A stretch of DNA of 64,000 nucleotides from Thermoanaerobaculia bacterium (lineage in GTDB: Bacteria; Acidobacteriota; Thermoanaerobaculia; Gp7-AA8): assembly GCA_036522835.1 (NCBI GenBank), contig DATDFB010000034.1, forward strand, positions 4,383 to 68,382, read 5' to 3'. Numbering within the stretch: position 1 is the stretch's first letter; each line of letters begins with the position of its first letter. Positions 4,330 through 15,208 of the stretch are shown in pieces. The notes below the pieces were generated by a model. The model was not told the origin of the DNA and ran no database searches. It worked only from the letters and a program-made list of their open reading frames with translations. The translations under genes and the position numbers were made by a program.

Positions 4330-4585
4330 TTCAGCAAACTCGCTGAAAACGGAAGAGCGCACGCTTGCAATGTAAGCAAACTCGCTGAAAATCGAAGAGC
4401 GCACGCTTGCAACGGAAGAGCGCACGCTTGCATCCGAAGCATTTTTCCTTGAGATCGAAGCGTGCGTCCTTCGATTTTCAGCGAACTCGCTTAACTTGGA
4501 AGCGTGCGCTCTTCCATTTTCAGCGAGTTTGCTGACGTTGCAAGCGGCCGTTCTTCGGTTGCAAGCGTCCGTTCTTCGGTTGCAT
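4330..4585. repeat. complex array of a ~37-bp unit (GCAAACTCGCTGAAAA-CGGAAGAGCGCACGCTTGCAA) in direct and inverted orientation
   Basis: There are 2.5 direct copies at 4330-4435, 2 inverted copies at 4450-4540, and 2 diverged inverted partial copies (GTTGCAAGCG-CCGTTCTTCG x2) at 4545-4585. The array lies in the 3'-3' intergenic region. Confidence 0.8.
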
Positions 4586-5351: not shown

Positions 5352-9413
<4,062 letters not shown>

Positions 9414-9516
9414 CCGGTGCTGGCGGCGGCATAGGTCGGCAACGCCGCCGCACGACGCTGGCTAATCGCTGTTAGCCGGACTGCCGCGATTTCCGACACT
9501 TAATGGGGCAACTACG

Positions 9517-9918
9517 CTATCTTCGATCGGAATCAGACGTTGTCCTCGGCGCCGGCTTATGCTCAAGTGTCACATTGAAATGCGACGACGGTGCCTTTAC
9601 GATTTTGGTGCTTCCATGGGTTTTCCAACCAGAAGCAATCACCTGTAAAGCAATATCGCCAACCGGCACACCTGAGAATTGGGCTCGGCCGCGTTTGTCA
9701 GTAAACAGCGACTCATTATATGAATCATCAGTGGTCGTTAAAAGCACGTTGGCGTTCTGAACTGCCTTGCTGTCACCAGTCACCAAGACCACGACGGCGG
9801 CTGTTATCGTCTTGGCGTCTTTCTCTTTGTCCTTATCTTTGGCTTTAGCCTTGCCCTGGGCGGCCGCATCCACCACGGAGCAAATGCAAATGATGACGCT
9901 GAGTAGGATCGTTAGCAT
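9517..9918 (-). CDS. small secreted protein with carboxypeptidase-regulatory-like (Ig-like) domain
   Basis: Start MLTILLSVIICICSVVDAAAQ (signal peptide). ..VLVTGDSKAVQNANVLLTTTDDSYNESLFTDKRGRAQFSGVPVGDIALQVIASGW.. resembles the CarboxypepD_reg fold. Lower GC than the flanks. Confidence 0.45.
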   Translation of the reverse strand: MLTILLSVIICICSVVDAAAQGKAKAKDKDKEKDAKTITAAVVVLVTGDSKAVQNANVLLTTTDDSYNESLFTDKRGRAQFSGVPVGDIALQVIASGWKTHGSTKIVKAPSSHFNVTLEHKPAPRTTSDSDRR

Positions 9919-9943
9919 CCGAAATCGACCGACGTCAACACGT

Positions 9944-10930
9944 CTATTGGCGTGCAACCAGCTTCTGGAAGATTTCGTCATAATAAGGTTTCTCCTTCAA
10001 AGCTGCACGGGAGCCCGGGAAGTATATCAACGTCACTTCAACCGAAACATCTCGCAGCTTCGTAACTACTAGTGCGCATCGTTCGCCGCCCAATAGCGGT
10101 ATATTTCGAATCATCGGGAAATCGAAAATTCCCACGTCCAAAACAGAATCGAGTTCATCGTCTGAATTATTACCGCGAACCGTTAGTCGAACCCGGATTG
10201 TCTTTTGTTTGATGTCGACTCGTAGTACGTCAACGGAAAACCGACGTGGTTGCTCACCGCCGCGCAAGGCGAGAGTCACGGAATCCAATGCCTGAATTCC
10301 TTCTGGCGGAACCTGTTTGTTCTCGTCTAAGTTAATAGTGCTATCTCGTTTAGCTCCTACCGATTCAAGCGCAGCCAGCTGCTGCTGATTCACCTTACTT
10401 GCGAGGGACTCGACCCGACGGCGCAATGGTTCGTTCTCCAGACCCTTCGCGCTCAACTCTGAGTATAAATGTTCAAAGAGCGGCGCCAAATCGAGCGAAT
10501 TGTGAAAATTGCGTGCAAGAAGATCCAGTTTGATAACCTTTTCACGAGCGGAGCTGTCATGCGTACTGGTAAGGAACGCATTCAGAGTCGTATTGAACAT
10601 CTCTTTTCGCAGCGCACTATCCGCAGCCTCTCGACTGCTCATTAACTGTGCGTACAAATTCACGCTAGCGGCTAGGCGTTGTTGTCGATCAAGATAGTCG
10701 GACGCCAAAACGCCGAGATAGGCAGTTAATCCAGCGACCAAAAGAGCGCCAACTGGCTTAAAAAGTATGTCAATCTTATCCCAGATGTCTTTTCCGGAAG
10801 GCGGCCCCTTCCCCTCGTCATTATTTGCCGCGGCACGCGCTTCCTCTGTCAACTTTGGCGGTTCGTTCACGCCCGCCGCCGATGTGGCGGCAGTCGAGCT
10901 CTCACTACCGACGGGCAAGGCCGTAGCCAT
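9944..10930 (-). CDS. hypothetical membrane-anchored protein (island gene)
   Basis: ORF 9944..10957 with a TM segment (LFKPVGALLVAGLTAYLGVLASDYL). Start set at MATALPV; 10957 is an alternative start. Lower-GC codon usage. Confidence 0.45.
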   Translation of the reverse strand: MATALPVGSESSTAATSAAGVNEPPKLTEEARAAANNDEGKGPPSGKDIWDKIDILFKPVGALLVAGLTAYLGVLASDYLDRQQRLAASVNLYAQLMSSREAADSALRKEMFNTTLNAFLTSTHDSSAREKVIKLDLLARNFHNSLDLAPLFEHLYSELSAKGLENEPLRRRVESLASKVNQQQLAALESVGAKRDSTINLDENKQVPPEGIQALDSVTLALRGGEQPRRFSVDVLRVDIKQKTIRVRLTVRGNNSDDELDSVLDVGIFDFPMIRNIPLLGGERCALVVTKLRDVSVEVTLIYFPGSRAALKEKPYYDEIFQKLVARQ

Positions 10931-11255
10931 GTGGGCCCCCCACAATCTCAAAGTCATACCTGACGGGCTCGTCGTAGGAATGCACTTTTGCGCGAGGTGT
11001 TACTTCCGGCGAGCCGATAAGTACTCGTAAGGTGCATGAGCCTTGTTCACGGACGTAAATTTTATAACCGCCGCCGGACTGCACAATGCCCGTATACACG
11101 TATTCGCCACTGCATCGTATTTCTAAATGTGCGCCATTCGCAGGGCGACCATCGCCGAAACGAATACTGCCGTAGATTACGTCAGCTTTCAGTTCCCCCA
11201 GCGAAAGTATAAGAAACACAATGCAACTTGTGATACCTATGCGCATCAAAAGCAT
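10905..11255 (-). CDS. small secreted hypothetical protein (island gene)
   Basis: MLLMRIGITSCIVFLILSLGELKA signal peptide. AGGAGA Shine-Dalgarno sequence 6 nt upstream on the minus strand. Confidence 0.5.
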   Translation of the reverse strand: MLLMRIGITSCIVFLILSLGELKADVIYGSIRFGDGRPANGAHLEIRCSGEYVYTGIVQSGGGYKIYVREQGSCTLRVLIGSPEVTPRAKVHSYDEPVRYDFEIVGGPHGYGLARR

Positions 11256-11354
11256 GGCTATCTCCTGCGGCAAACATGGACCGATTTGCGATTTGTATAT
11301 TGTGCCGCCGCCGTGATTGCGAGTCAATGCATTTAAAACGGAGCCTACAAGGCC

Positions 11355-11380
11355 GGCTAACTACCCTCACAAGCTGACAA
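11355..11380. repeat. left copy of 26-27-bp direct repeat GGCTAACT[A/G]CCCTCACAAGCTGACAA
   Basis: Matches 13063-13089 with 2 mismatches. Together the two copies bracket the non-coding region plus the DUF3800-like gene. Confidence 0.85.
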
Positions 11381-11405
11381 AAACCGCCGAGCCCTGGCTC
11401 GGCGG
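11377..11405 (-). terminator. intrinsic-terminator-like hairpin on the minus strand (CCGCCGAGCC-agg-GGCTCGGCGG followed by TTTTTGT)
   Basis: 10-bp GC stem with a 3-nt loop, followed by a T-run when read on the minus strand. This would terminate a minus-strand transcript coming from the 11400-12060 non-coding region. Confidence 0.5.
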
Positions 11406-11674
11406 CGGAGCCGCCTCGGGCGGCTCGAACTGCACGCACGCGGCACGTCGGCTGCAGTTCGCTCCCGCCAATTCGTGTTGGTCGCGGCAGCCGCCGCGCC
11501 GCTTTCGGGAGGCCGGCATGGTGGGCGGTTTTTGCAGCTTAGAGTGAGCGCGTTAGGCCGGCGCGCGACTTGCTCGAGAATCACGATGCACTAAGCACGA
11601 CACTCGCAAGCCTCGCGGACGCCGAAAATCCAGTTCATCGCCAGCGTCACGTTCCGCCCTCGCAGCGCCGCAGG

Positions 11675-11847
11675 GTGAGGAACGGGCCGCGACCAGCAAG
11701 ACGCGCCGCCGCCGAAGCGACAGTTTGGGCACTCGATCTGTGGGACTTGCATAATTGCACGCTCAGCGCAAAGTCGAGTGCCCAAACAGTCGCTTCACCG
11801 TCCGCCCGGCGCACGCTCGTCGCGGCCCGTTCCTCACGCGCCGCCCA
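11675..11847. repeat. nested long imperfect palindrome (~173 bp) inside a ~690-bp ORF-free region; possible structured RNA or recombination site
   Basis: Outer arms GTGAGGAACGGGCCGCGAC (11675-11693) and GTCGCGGCCCGTTCCTCAC (11829-11847). Inner arms CGACAGTTTGGGCACTCGA (11718-11736) and TCGAGTGCCCAAACAGTCG (11774-11792). Centre TTGCATAATTGCA. Confidence 0.8.
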
Positions 11848-12068
11848 CCCCTGCGCGTTCGGGCCATCCAGTTGGCTGTCACGCCGCTCGCAATCTCGCA
11901 CCTCAGTGCTCGCACCTGCGGCGCGGCGAGCGGCGCACCAGCCAACAGCATGGCCCTCGGCGCGCCCCACCGGCGCCGTCGCTGCTCCCGCCCGTTCATC
12001 CGCGATGGTCGGTTGAGGAAACATCAGCCGGCTGCGTTACGGGCTCCAAAGCGTATCCTTCTAGTAGG

Positions 12069-13046
12069 ATGCTAGAGCTCTACCTTGACGAAAGCGGAAC
12101 CCATGATACGAAGGACGAGCCACTCCTGATCATGGCGGGGTATCTGGCCGAGGAAGCGAAGTGGTCGCGGTTTAACCAGCGCTGGTCCGAGGTCCTTAGG
12201 CAATTCCAAATTGACCGTTTCCACATGAAGGATCTTAGGAATCTTCGCCACAAGCGGCTTAGGCACTTGTCTAGAACGCAGCGCTTAGAGCTGCTCACCG
12301 CATTAATCGCTATCACAGCCGAAACGGCGCTCATCGGCACGATAGCTTTTCTGCGACCTTCAGATTATCTCGCCGTGACTGATAAAAAATTCCGGAGCAG
12401 GTACGGTAGCGCATACGGGATGCTCGTTACGCTAACGCTTCTCAAGCTGGATTCGATTCTACTCAACCAAATCCATGAGCCAGATACAATCCGGGTGTTT
12501 ATCGAAGAAGGCCACGTAAACGCCGCTGACGTACTACGTCTGCTTCGATATTGGCAGGAGGATACCGCCGCAGCGCCGATAATATATGAAGGAGAGCCAG
12601 TAGAGACAATCCTTTCTGATCCCAGCCGAACATCTCGTATGCGAATCGCCGAGTTCGGCCTCGGATCAAAGACGGCAACGTATCCGCTCCATGCCTCTGA
12701 CATGCTCGGCTATTTCGCATCATTATCTCTGTCGTTTCGAATCGACGACGAATTCACAGCTGTATTCGACACTCTCCTGGGCCGCATACCCCACATTTCG
12801 ACTTTTTGGAATCGCAGCAGCCTGGAAGAACTCGTTCAACTCGTTCTGGCTGACGAGCGCGAAAAACAGGAAATTCGCGACGGCTGGAATGATATTCGGC
12901 GTTACCTCGCGTCGTATGACGTTAAGCTCAATGTTTTACCGTGGGGCGTGACCATGGATGCTCGCCATCTGTCCGAGGAAAAGTGGGCAGAGGTGCGTGC
13001 TCACATAAAAGGTGATTTAGAAAATCAGCAGAACCTAAAACGCTAG
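12069..13046 (+). CDS. DUF3800-like protein (N-terminal LYLDESG motif; predicted RNase-H-like fold family)
   Basis: Start MLELYLDESGTHDTKDEPLLIMAGYL matches the hallmark N-terminal motif of DUF3800. 325 aa, moderate GC. Start chosen within ORF 11778..13046 because the upstream part lies in the palindromic non-coding region. Confidence 0.65.
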   Translation: MLELYLDESGTHDTKDEPLLIMAGYLAEEAKWSRFNQRWSEVLRQFQIDRFHMKDLRNLRHKRLRHLSRTQRLELLTALIAITAETALIGTIAFLRPSDYLAVTDKKFRSRYGSAYGMLVTLTLLKLDSILLNQIHEPDTIRVFIEEGHVNAADVLRLLRYWQEDTAAAPIIYEGEPVETILSDPSRTSRMRIAEFGLGSKTATYPLHASDMLGYFASLSLSFRIDDEFTAVFDTLLGRIPHISTFWNRSSLEELVQLVLADEREKQEIRDGWNDIRRYLASYDVKLNVLPWGVTMDARHLSEEKWAEVRAHIKGDLENQQNLKR

Positions 13047-13062
13047 TCACAACCTCGGTAGC

Positions 13063-13089
13063 GGCCTAACTGCCCTCACAAGCTGACAA
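13063..13089. repeat. right copy of 26-27-bp direct repeat GGCCTAACTGCCCTCACAAGCTGACAA
   Basis: See left copy at 11355-11380. Lies immediately before the duplicated lhr 3' remnant. Confidence 0.85.
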
Positions 13090-13101
13090 CGGCCGCGTCA
13101 A

Positions 13102-13204
13102 CGTCATCAGCGCCGCCGACCCCCTCAACCTCGCCGGCGTCCGCGCACACCCCTCCACCCGCCGGGCGGCGGGTGCCGGTGGCGGCGGGGTTCGTGGGAC
13201 GCTA
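13102..13204 (+). pseudogene. degenerate duplicate of the lhr 3' end (displaced target copy / attR-like remnant)
   Basis: Matches lhr 9215-9275 and 9371-9413, including the synonymous differences gcc/gca and agg/cgc. Lacks ~95 bp internally and is out of frame. Confidence 0.75.
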
Positions 13205-13587
13205 GCAGTCTGCCAACTCGATCCTGAGAGCGGCTGCTGCTTCGCGCATTCGTCGATCGTAGCTGGCCAGGCTGATCTCTACGCCGAGCCCGCGGAGAAA
13301 GAGCAGCGTCGACAATGCAGCGCGTCGAGGGTGCGTACGGGCGATGGGAATGGCTCCGTCGCCCGCTGCAGTACATGCCGCGAAAGCTCGGCGATGGCCA
13401 GCGATTCGATGATTCTGCGCGCCGCTTCGCCGTGGGAGCGCTCCGCCCGCTGGCGATGAATCGCATTCCAGATTTCGTAATCGATGAGCCGGCTCGAAGC
13501 CAACTCTTCATCCCAAAAGGTGGGCGGCGGGCAACGGTCCTCTGCGAACAGCTCCGCGAGTACGACCGGGGTATCGACGTAGATCAT
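13202..13587 (-). pseudogene. vapC: PIN-domain toxin VapC with single-base frameshift near 13305
   Basis: ORF 13279..13689 gives MIYVDTPVVLAELF...RTLDALHC then stops. A -1 frame continues LSTLLFLRGLGVEISLASYDRRMREAAAALRIELADC to the stop at 13202-13204 (typical VapC C-terminus). Consistent with a 1-nt deletion in a TT run at ~13305, or with a sequencing error. Confidence 0.6.
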
Positions 13588-13880
13588 CGGTCTTCGCGGT
13601 CTGCGTCGAGATTCTGGAGAATCTTCTCCAGGGGAGCGATCGGACGTCGCGCAGGCGGCCGTTGACGCGCGACAGGTGGGGTCAGCCATTCGCGGCGGAT
13701 CGCGTCGGCAAGGATCGCGTCTTCGAGCGCTTCCGCCCGTCCCGTCGCGGGCGGCCCGATCTCCGCGACGACGCGATCGCGGTCGGAGACGAGAATCGTT
13801 TCACCCTGCGAAGCAAGCCGAATGTATTCACTCAGCTTGTTCTTGAGCACTTTGATGCCGACGGCACGCATGCGTGGCAA
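13584..13880 (-). CDS. Phd/YefM-family antitoxin (VapB partner of the frameshifted VapC)
   Basis: MRAVGIKVLKNKLSEYIRLASQGETILVSDRDRVVAEI. 4-bp overlap with the vapC start. Confidence 0.6.
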   Translation of the reverse strand: MPRMRAVGIKVLKNKLSEYIRLASQGETILVSDRDRVVAEIGPPATGRAEALEDAILADAIRREWLTPPVARQRPPARRPIAPLEKILQNLDADREDR

Positions 13881-13904
13881 CGTAGCTCCCGGTGGCTACT
13901 TTGT

Positions 13905-13942
13905 CAAAGCGCCCGGTACCCGCTCCCGCTTTCCGGGATCGC
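13905..13942. repeat. 38-bp direct repeat GTCAAAGCGCCCGGTACCCGCTC.CGCT.TCCGG.ATCGC, left copy
   Basis: Matches 14957-14993 with 3 mismatches. The right copy is the 3' end of the minus-strand gene 14957..15208. Confidence 0.8.
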
Positions 13943-13959
13943 ACTGGCGCGGTTCTTCG

Positions 13960-14145
13960 ATGCTCGTGCTCAAACGCCTGCGGAACTGGAGCTACGATAC
14001 GCTGGAGCAGGAGGTCCGCGCGAATCTGGTGTATCGGCAGTTCACGCGCGTCGGGACGGAGCGGGTGCCGGACGCAAAGTCGCTGATCCAGATTGGGCAG
14101 ATCCGATTCAACAACCGCAGGATGATGACGGCGGGCGCTTCCTGA
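13960..14145 (+). pseudogene. IS5-family (DUF772-type N-terminus) transposase fragment
   Basis: MLVLKRLRNWSYDTLEQEVRANLVYRQFTRVGTERVPDAKSLIQIGQ resembles IS5-family transposase N-terminal regions. Truncated after 61 aa with no DDE domain. Confidence 0.5.
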
Positions 14146-14339: not shown

Positions 14340-14621
14340 ATGGCCACAGAAACAACCTACACGCATGCTCGTGCAAACCTCAAAGCTCTTCTCGACGAGG
14401 CGTCAGACGGCCGCGACATCGTCATCATCCATCGCCGTGGCGCCGACGATGTTGCACTCATCGCGGTAGACGAACTGCGAAGCCTCATCGAGACGGCACA
14501 CCTACTTCGGTCTCCGAAGAACGCCGAGCGGCTGCTTCGTGCCTTAGCTCGTGCAAAGCGACGTAAGGGCCGTGCCCAGACGATGGCTAAACTGCGTCGC
14601 GATGTCGGTCTGGACGAGTAG
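14340..14621 (+). CDS. yefM: YefM/Phd-family type II antitoxin
   Basis: MATETTYTHARANLKALLDEASDGRDIVIIHRRGADDVALIAVDELRSLIETAHLLRSPKNAERL. Confidence 0.75.
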   Translation: MATETTYTHARANLKALLDEASDGRDIVIIHRRGADDVALIAVDELRSLIETAHLLRSPKNAERLLRALARAKRRKGRAQTMAKLRRDVGLDE

Positions 14622-14629
14622 CGCCGGCC

Positions 14630-14902
14630 GTGCCCAAGCAGAAAAGTCGTGCCGCTGTTTTCCAGGACGAGTTTCGTGAGGATCTTCGCTATTGGGTTCA
14701 GAACGATCGCAAGATTGCGCTCCGTGTCATCGACCTTGTCGAGGCCGTCATGCGCGACCCATTTATAGGAATCGGCAAGCCAGAGCCGCTGAAGTATCTC
14801 GCGTCGGGTGCGTGGTCTCGCCGTCTCACGCAGGAACATCGAATCGTATATGTCGTGTCAGACGACCGCATCGATTTTCTCCAAGCCAAATATCACTACT
14901 AA
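14630..14902 (+). CDS. yoeB: YoeB/Txe-family type II toxin (mRNA interferase)
   Basis: ..GIGKPEPLKYLASGAWSRRLTQEHRIVYVVSDDRIDFLQAKYHY matches the YoeB C-terminal signature. Lies immediately downstream of yefM. Confidence 0.75.
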   Translation: MPKQKSRAAVFQDEFREDLRYWVQNDRKIALRVIDLVEAVMRDPFIGIGKPEPLKYLASGAWSRRLTQEHRIVYVVSDDRIDFLQAKYHY

Positions 14903-14956
14903 ATAGGCCGCCCAGCGATCTTCCGAGTCGCAGGCGGGCGAAGCTCCGCGACGGCG

Positions 14957-14993
14957 TCAAAGCGCCCGGTACCCGCTCTCGCTCTCCGGAATC
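14957..14993. repeat. 38-bp direct repeat, right copy (native 3' end of gene 14957..15208)
   Basis: See 13905-13942. Confidence 0.8.
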
Positions 14994-15208
14994 GCGCTCT
15001 TTCTCCGCTCGAGCTTCGTCACGCGCCAGTCGCCGTGCTCGCGCACGACCTCGACGTGCACGGACGTGTGCTCGTCCACGTTGCCGGCCCAGGCGTAGCG
15101 CGCGCCGTCCCACTGCTCCGGCGCGAGGCCGCGCTCGCGCAGGCGCTCCTCGGCGTACTCGACGACCTGCTCGGGACCGATGTGATCGCAATTTGGCATG
15201 ATGGCCAA
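14957..15208 (-). CDS. small hypothetical protein
   Basis: MAIMPNCDHIGPEQVVEYAEERLRERGLAPEQWDGARYAWAGNVDEHTSVHVEVVREHGDWRVTKLERRKSAIPESESGYRAL. Its 3' end is duplicated at 13905-13942. Confidence 0.4.
   Translation of the reverse strand: MAIMPNCDHIGPEQVVEYAEERLRERGLAPEQWDGARYAWAGNVDEHTSVHVEVVREHGDWRVTKLERRKSAIPESESGYRAL

Follow-up and report, generated by a model that had tools for sequence, protein, structure and literature searches.

We analyzed a 64,000-nucleotide stretch of a metagenome-assembled genome (MAG) of Thermoanaerobaculia (Acidobacteriota), positions 4,383 to 68,382 of contig DATDFB010000034.1, which we call the window. In it, two direct repeats bracket a unit made up of a long GC-rich region and a single gene for a DUF3800-family protein. 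The repeats are very probably the R''-L'' arms of two integron attC sites, and the unit between them an integron gene cassette with the DUF3800 gene as cargo. The locus as a whole is, in all likelihood, a small, decayed cluster of integron cassettes with no integron integrase nearby, resembling the known attC clusters that have no integron integrase (CALIN). Two traits of the locus are unusual: a 203-nt multi-hairpin attC, and a recurrent structured element of 360 nt.

Direct repeats and the ends of cassettes

The two copies of the direct repeat, GGCTAACTACCCTCACAAGCTGACAA at 11355-11380 and GCCTAACTGCCCTCACAAGCTGACAA at 13064-13089, are identical at 25 of 26 positions, and no matching pair was found in any of 100 shuffled versions of the window (0/100). 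An earlier note on the window had described this pair. Both copies are real, and the second begins at 13064, one base later than the note had placed it. In the note the repeats bracket the unit; the 26-nt repeat is common and dispersed. A scan of metagenome contigs with its 24-nt core located the core in more than 120 soil-metagenome contigs among the matches listed, many of which had two to eight copies on the same strand, 1.1-3.7 kb apart. The longest array had eight sites on one contig (L191).

Each copy of the core is the left arm of a unit of approximately 203 nt that ends in ...GCAGCTTAGAGTGAGCACGTTAGGC. We fetched 120 array loci (L094-L213) and extracted 180 complete sites (174 distinct, the window site among them), with a modal length of 203 nt and a range of 176-231 nt. 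The ends of the unit fit the integron inverse core RYYYAAC (R'') and core GTTRRRY (R'): among the 174 distinct sites, R'' was GCCTAAC in 86, GGCTAAC in 56 and GCCCAAC in 20, and R' was GTTAGGC in 67, GTTAGCC in 50 and GTTGGGC in 27. There were 149 complete cassettes between sites, with a median length of 1136 nt. Their longest open reading frames (ORFs) fell into 131 unrelated cargo clusters and were in the sense orientation in 114 of the 149 cassettes. The attC sites have 69% GC, close to the host genome (~68-70%), compared to approximately 55% for the cargo.

The strongest evidence that these units are integron cassettes comes from their ends. Integron crossover occurs at G|TT in the core, and the six bases past the G belong to the next cassette. 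The first bases of a cassette (TTRRRY) should therefore pair with the R'' of that cassette's own attC, and not with the site that they abut. We found perfect complementarity between the 5' GTTRRRY and the cassette's own 3' R'' in 143 of 148 cassettes. When cassette ends were shuffled (2000 shuffles), a mean of 54 and a maximum of 73 of the 148 were complementary, and R'' and R' of a single site were perfectly complementary in 59/177 cases, which is the chance level. We take the agreement in 143 of 148 cassettes to prove that the units are integron-type cassettes. The two cassettes in the window follow the same rule, with GTTAGCC (9471-9477) complementary to GGCTAAC (11355-11361) and GTTAGGC (11552-11558) complementary to GCCTAAC (13064-13070). 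The unit had been drawn out of phase in the earlier note: the cassette is bounded by the G|TT of the R' core (11552|11553) and not by the start of the repeat.

The complete attC of the window consists, in order, of R'', the L'' arm, a multi-hairpin center, the L' arm and R'. Folded as DNA (z = -5.4), its bottom strand forms an imperfect hairpin, interrupted by a single bulged T and a 3-nt bulge in the L stem. In an alignment of 80 attC copies the L arms were invariant, and the inner hairpins of the central part were variable, 10 of their pairs having compensatory changes. The two GC hairpins at 11384-11430 and a minus-strand hairpin followed by a T-run (11406-11383), both noticed earlier, are present and are conserved internal parts of attC. 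Such hairpin and T-run features occur on both strands (window 11383-11406 and 11520-11535) and are conserved in the family (CCGCC...GGCGG, then TTTTTG); each attC site could double as a terminator between cassettes.

Several side observations concern the same family of sites. A semi-conserved leader, GTTAGGCCGAT.GCGCGAG...CGCGC.AATCACGA, with a short inverted repeat inside it, follows the R' core and occupies the first 70-95 nt of many cassettes in L094-L213; an example in the window lies at 11553-11630. An independent assembly of the window locus (L001, ENA contig k141_2205305) begins at approximately 11404, and its break inside the first attC fits the idea of the 203-nt site as a high-copy repeat at which short-read assemblies break up. 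In another Thermoanaerobaculia MAG (L026, 17528-17724, minus strand) there is a degenerate 203-nt attC, with R'' GCCCAAC and R' lost, approximately 6 kb downstream of lhr.

By analogy with integrons, an IntI-type tyrosine recombinase encoded elsewhere would recombine the folded single-stranded attC at G|TT. The cassette would be excised as a circle that reconstitutes its own attC, and could then be re-inserted at another place. The complementarity of cassette ends supports this proposed mobility. The DUF3800 cassette in the window can no longer be excised via its own site, because its attC is cut after the L'' arm.

It is very improbable that the repeats and the 203-nt unit have nothing to do with integrons and are instead a dispersed repeat of the repetitive extragenic palindrome (REP) or miniature inverted-repeat transposable element type, or else a non-autonomous transposon's ends. 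Such an origin would be in keeping with a unit that is a dispersed GC-rich imperfect palindrome, that has no integrase nearby in the window or the array loci, and that occurs as single copies within ordinary chromosomal contexts. However, it would not yield same-strand arrays separated by unrelated, mostly single-ORF units, and it offers no account of why the first 7 nt of a unit pair with the core of the next downstream site and not with the abutting site. The match of the cores to RYYYAAC and GTTRRRY also argues against it.

Other observations weigh against assigning the locus to integrons. We found no integron integrase or attI in the 64-kb window or in the 120 array loci. Searches by tblastn with IntI1 and with an IntI-like fragment from locus L014 gave no matches in the window at E ≤ 1 or in L094-L213 at E ≤ 0.01, and in long contigs the arrays are flanked by ordinary GC-rich chromosomal genes. 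The site of approximately 203 nt exceeds the usual length of attC, which is about 57-141 nt. Finally, the first cassette in the window has three overlapping ORFs antisense to the array, which is atypical for a single integron cassette. The presence of attC remnants with no IntI-like gene in 64 kb leads us to describe the locus as a CALIN-like cluster (as the term is used by Cury et al. 2016, PMC4889954) that has decayed.

The structured element and the DUF3800 gene

The region between the first repeat and the DUF3800 gene (11381-12068) had been described as having no credible ORF, and we agree: it has only the overlapping ORFs typical of GC-rich DNA, with no credible Pfam match. The spacer of 690 bp is a composite. 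It consists of the 204-nt attC of the upstream cassette, a leader of approximately 75 nt, the 360-nt element, and approximately 70 nt that hold an R'-like core and a leader. The GC-rich stretch between the repeats has 68% GC, and the RNA fold of 11560-12068 had a z score of -7.6 compared to shuffled sequences. A pseudogene or other coding reading of 11381-12068 was also considered and was rejected, as there was no Pfam match, the indels in the loops were not multiples of three, and the sequence is symmetric.

The element has a closing helix (GCAGC/GCTGC) that encloses a first large hairpin (11675-11837), a small hairpin, a second large hairpin (11861-11956) and another small hairpin. The arms of the first large hairpin are 11675-11697 and 11815-11837 (23 nt, 96% complementary), continued by 11702-11736 and 11774-11808. 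The nested palindrome reported in the earlier note thus exists, but it spans approximately 163 nt and not 173, the outer right arm having been placed about 10 nt off. The second palindrome (96 nt) had been missed.

The same element is present, in full or in part, in approximately 30 of the 149 cassettes (~20%), with 77-87% identity. Every copy lies close to the 5' end of its cassette, ahead of the ORF and in the sense orientation. With a profile of the element we found approximately 45 copies, full or partial, in the array loci (0.45 Mb); the lhr-linked genome loci (1.2 Mb) gave none. From 19 full copies we derived a consensus fold of 96 pairs, 16 of them with compensatory changes, in which the hairpin loops are hypervariable. 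Partial copies without whole hairpins were common. The genes downstream of the element are unrelated to one another. They code for an HNH endonuclease, a restriction endonuclease (Mrr_cat), a protein with DUF7336 and several products of unknown kind; no DUF3800 protein was found in any other element-bearing cassette (hmmsearch, E ≤ 10; Pfam). Positions 9000-14000 of the window had no match in Rfam at E ≤ 1.

Our best guess, weakly supported, is that the element is an attC-type structure of single-stranded DNA, either a fossil or a variant, that marks the place of a former cassette boundary. If so, the present unit is a fused cassette. A degenerate R'-like core follows the element in the window, and 5 of 24 other distinct cassettes with the element have an exact GTTAG[GC]C at a distance of 10-80 nt past it, compared to 0.5% expected per interval (binomial P ~1e-7 against the background of cassette interiors). 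Further cassettes have degenerate R'-like cores in this place, and the 5' flank of the element looks R''-L''-like as judged by eye. A profile of R' plus leader, however, gave no match after the element, and with the core enrichment positive and this profile negative, the case for a second R' there is weak evidence. The view that the element derives from attC depends on this enrichment (5/24) and on the likeness seen by eye, and the negative profile weighs against it. A comparison of G-U pairs with A-C mismatches showed no strand bias (59 vs 39, or 25 vs 39 without two invariant G-U pairs) and so favors neither an RNA nor a DNA role. Among the 149 cassettes there were no informative pairs with and without the element that could serve as a test for its insertion as a mobile unit.

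We think it possible, but doubtful, that the element is a new structured nucleic-acid class of integron cassettes, either a giant variant recombination site or landing pad, or an RNA acting in cis to control cargo such as toxic nucleases or defence genes. A landing pad for ORF cassettes would explain the R' core after the element. If this were true, the element would be a functional component of cassettes beyond the usual ORF and attC. Action as an RNA in its own right, as a cis-acting leader in a subset of cassettes (for example a transcript stabilizer, an attenuator or an antitoxin-like RNA against toxic nuclease cargo) that controls expression independently of the integron promoter, is the chief competing view and seems unlikely to us. 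The constant position of the element at the 5' end, in sense and ahead of the ORF, speaks for a leader, as do the closed multi-helix fold with covariation and hypervariable loops and the fact that several downstream cargos are nucleases (HNH, Mrr_cat, DUF3800). The lack of G-U strand bias and the frequent copies missing whole hairpins speak against it. There was also no conserved sigma-70-type promoter in the element, the only predicted promoter being in a non-conserved loop.

The protein encoded downstream had been recognized in the earlier note as a DUF3800 member, and the Pfam match and structural model bear this out, although its own Pfam score is borderline (21.1 bits, with a cut-off of 21). 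The family profile matches 9 of the 10 close homologues and, among distant relatives, 39 of 60 (best E 2.5e-11), and the wider protein family has 4508 representatives at E ≤ 0.001. An AlphaFold model made with 10 close homologues and four distant members reached a predicted local distance difference test score (pLDDT) of 88, compared to 50 with the 10 close homologues alone. The modeled fold is RNase H-like and appears close to RNase HII and PIWI. Residues D7, E8, H52, E146, H149 and D211 are conserved and would fit a metal-dependent nuclease. Searches with the window protein in PADLOC, NCBIfam and PDB sequences were empty or insignificant.

There are nine homologues with 53-73% identity to the window protein, and we fetched the contexts of four clusters (P0003, P0008, P0009 and P0010). 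The gaps upstream of the homologous genes are 118-325 bp in the four locus groups. Nucleotide similarity to the window was confined to the coding region, and no flanking sequence was shared among the homologue loci (L002-L014) or with the window (BLAST). In L014 (4265-8386) there is an IntI-like fragment, with 47% identity to residues 121-335 of IntI1, at a distance of 1.1 kb from the homologue P0010, which is flanked by 40-nt direct repeats that differ in sequence from the window repeat. Given this neighborhood and these repeats, the DUF3800 family is probably integron cargo elsewhere too. Separately, a canonical-looking attC of approximately 109 nt (GCATAAC...GTTAGGC) is present at L014 8050-8158, after the gene next to P0010.

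The earlier note had likened the unit to a module of structured RNA and lone nuclease, of the IS110/bridge-RNA, obligate mobile element-guided activity (OMEGA) or retron type. We give very little credence to the idea that the 690-bp region encodes a structured RNA that serves the DUF3800 nuclease as guide or partner in an RNA-associated mobile or defence module (like IS110, IscB/TnpB, retrons or the DUF3800 motifs). It draws on the strong structure of the region and the compensatory changes across copies, on the modeled RNase H-like fold close to RNase HII and PIWI, and on the 11 unrelated structured RNA motifs reported beside DUF3800 genes (PMC5737381). Two results contradict it, both of a kind that the note had said would refute it: the repeat is dispersed, and in the four fetched locus groups the regions upstream of DUF3800 homologues have no similarity to the 690-bp region or to the repeat. 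In addition, the element precedes unrelated genes, Pfam found no transposase, reverse transcriptase or TnpB/IscB gene, and Rfam, including the DUF3800-associated motifs that it holds, was negative around five homologue loci (E ≤ 0.1) as it was in the window. A conserved RNA beside DUF3800 genes was likewise rejected, as the flanks of the four homologue clusters share nothing.

Layout and origin of the island

The features of the locus are listed in Table 1. The window has one complete attC site, one left arm and one stub; the stub is the start point of cassette 1, and 46 nt of unassigned sequence separate it from the end of lhr. The truncated attC at the other end is fused directly to a fragment of lhr.

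Table 1. Features of the lhr-DUF3800 locus, in window positions
Feature	Positions	Strand	Basis or remark
lhr (large helicase-related), intact, 1353 aa	5352-9413	+	ORF; relatives found via its C-terminus
Left lhr duplicate copy, last 213 nt	9202-9414	+	L036-type allele ...GGGAAGGTAG
attC stub: R''-like GGCTAAT and last 11 nt of attC (TCGCTGTTAGCC) with R' GTTAGCC at 9471-9477	9460-9477	+	Sequence read directly
Cassette 1, ~2.1 kb, GC ~52%, own attC at 3' end	9472-11552	+	Ends TTAGCC...GGCTAA complementary
Cassette 1 ORF, 154 aa, CarboxypepD_reg domain	9517-9981	-	Pfam
Cassette 1 ORF, 337 aa, no family match	9944-10957	-	
Cassette 1 ORF, 140 aa, no family match	10905-11327	-	
Complete attC, 204 nt; R'' GGCTAAC 11355-11361, R' GTTAGGC 11552-11558	11355-11558	+	nhmmer E = 4e-63, with a profile built from 174 distinct sites, this one included
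Cassette 2 (DUF3800), start TTAGGC, truncated attC at end	11553-13089	+	Core/R'' complementarity
Recurrent structured element, ~360 nt	11635-11998	+	Profile copies, consensus fold
Degenerate R'-like core ATCAGCC	12023-12029	+	25 nt after the element
DUF3800-family gene, 325 aa, start MLELYLDESGTHD...	12069-13046	+	Pfam DUF3800 (PF12686), predicted RNase H-like fold
Truncated attC, R'' GCCTAAC (13064-13070) and L'' arm only	13064-13089	+	nhmmer, model positions 1-33 only
Displaced resident lhr 3' end remnant, 95-bp internal deletion, frameshifted	13089-13206	+	Repeat families D1 97%, D6 96% identity

The DNA between the two lhr copies has approximately 52% GC, compared to 68-72% around it. Two relatives, L036 and L015, whose C-terminal 400 residues of Lhr are 93% and 85% identical to those of the window, lack the island: in both, lhr continues directly into the DNA found after 13206 in the window. 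These two genomes thus have an empty site, and the earlier note's view of a mobile cassette inside a horizontally acquired island is upheld. On the left side, lhr continues cleanly but as a different allele. At the right junction, the L'' arm of attC (...GCTGACA) is joined to the lhr equivalent of position 9202, with approximately 2 nt of microhomology. The right lhr remnant is an L015-type allele (GGGACGCTAG) and is continuous with native downstream DNA that aligns to L015 downstream of lhr. Because the right copy is of the resident type and the left copy is the other allele, the island appears to have come with a foreign lhr 3' end.

We suggest that a block of two cassettes reached the genome attached to a foreign lhr 3' end. 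Its left end would have been joined by homologous recombination in lhr, and its right end by an illegitimate join of the attC L'' arm to lhr at about codon 1284. The resident lhr 3' end would have been displaced by the island and would have decayed since.

There is some chance, though not a favored one, that the island is the remnant of a larger integrative element that had its own site-specific recombinase and targeted the lhr 3' end, in which case the lhr copies would be attL and attR. A direct duplication of a gene 3' end around low-GC DNA is the classic signature of such elements, and the empty sites in two relatives fit as well. Against this, the 3.9 kb contain neither an integrase gene nor any other gene of such an element, and the right junction lies inside the attC L'' arm with only approximately 2 nt of microhomology. 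The two lhr copies differ in allele, as expected if donor DNA brought one end. No tRNA or tmRNA that could be an integration target was found in the window.

There are further repeats and mobile modules around the island. The coding region of lhr contains two copies of a palindromic repeat (8061-8097 and 8153-8189; CTCTCCCCGCAAGCGGGGAGAGG) that are translated in frame (...PLPASGERVAEGRVRG...); this looks like a REP-like repeat that was inserted into the gene. The DNA from lhr to an abhydrolase gene has a PIN/Phd pair on the minus strand (13279-13880) and a YefM/YoeB pair on the plus strand (14340-14902), both of the type II toxin-antitoxin class; the YefM/YoeB pair is flanked by 43-nt direct repeats (13903-13945 and 14956-14998, 91% identity). 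Of the two pairs, only PIN/Phd is present in L015, and L036 lacks both. The DNA downstream of lhr looks like an insertion hot spot.

Relation to known systems and significance

The locus and its attC family share features with sedentary chromosomal integrons and with CALIN, a CALIN being defined by two or more attC sites on one strand, spaced by under 4 kb, and by the lack of an intI gene close by (Cury et al. 2016, PMC4889954). These features are the RYYYAAC...GTTRRRY cores, a bulged imperfect hairpin, crossover at G|TT as shown by end complementarity, and arrays on one strand in which the cassettes are diverse and mostly have a single main ORF. High conservation of attC within a family is shared with sedentary chromosomal integrons, and the lack of a nearby integrase with CALIN. 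The differences are the longer, multi-hairpin attC, the rather large cassettes (median 1.1 kb), the single complete site of the window with a stub and a half site, and an attC family to which no IntI is linked so far. An attC family specific to Acidobacteria has been modeled by Ghaly et al. 2021 (PMC8352920); the sites described here resemble it in the Acidobacteriota host of the window and in the host-like GC content of attC (69%).

Eleven mutually unrelated RNA motifs of unknown function, DUF3800-I to DUF3800-XI, have been described beside DUF3800 genes (Weinberg et al. 2017, PMC5737381). Here too a structured non-coding element adjoins a DUF3800 gene, but it matches no Rfam model and is tied to the 5' ends of cassettes with many cargos and not to DUF3800. 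A further parallel is the DUF1874 motif from the same study, a multistem structure in consecutive intergenic regions that was proposed to be an unusual attC. Both have structure beyond a simple hairpin and occur in cassette-like arrays with no integrase nearby. The sequences differ, and the attC nature of the sites described here is backed by core sites and the end-complementarity test. The window protein shares conserved D7, E8, E146, H149 and D211 with RNase HII, RNase H3, PIWI and Endonuclease V, from which it differs in its low identity (6-15%) and in an extra helical C-terminal half. With respect to IS110/IS1111, IscB/TnpB and retrons, Pfam found no signature protein, and the non-coding region does not co-occur with homologues of the DUF3800 gene.

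An apparently exotic module of RNA and nuclease is thereby resolved into ordinary integron biology. The analysis brings to light a large attC family of soil metagenomes that is poorly charted and whose cassettes contain many nuclease and defence-like genes of unknown function. Integron cassettes are at present searched, as reservoirs, for phage-defence genes and other genes of adaptive value (PMC12614218). Because its sites are atypically long, this family may be under-sampled by standard attC searches. The 360-nt element, which lies outside Rfam, is a testable lead on what cassettes contain besides an ORF and attC. Finally, DUF3800 genes, which the literature has linked to eleven RNA motifs, travel as integron cargo.

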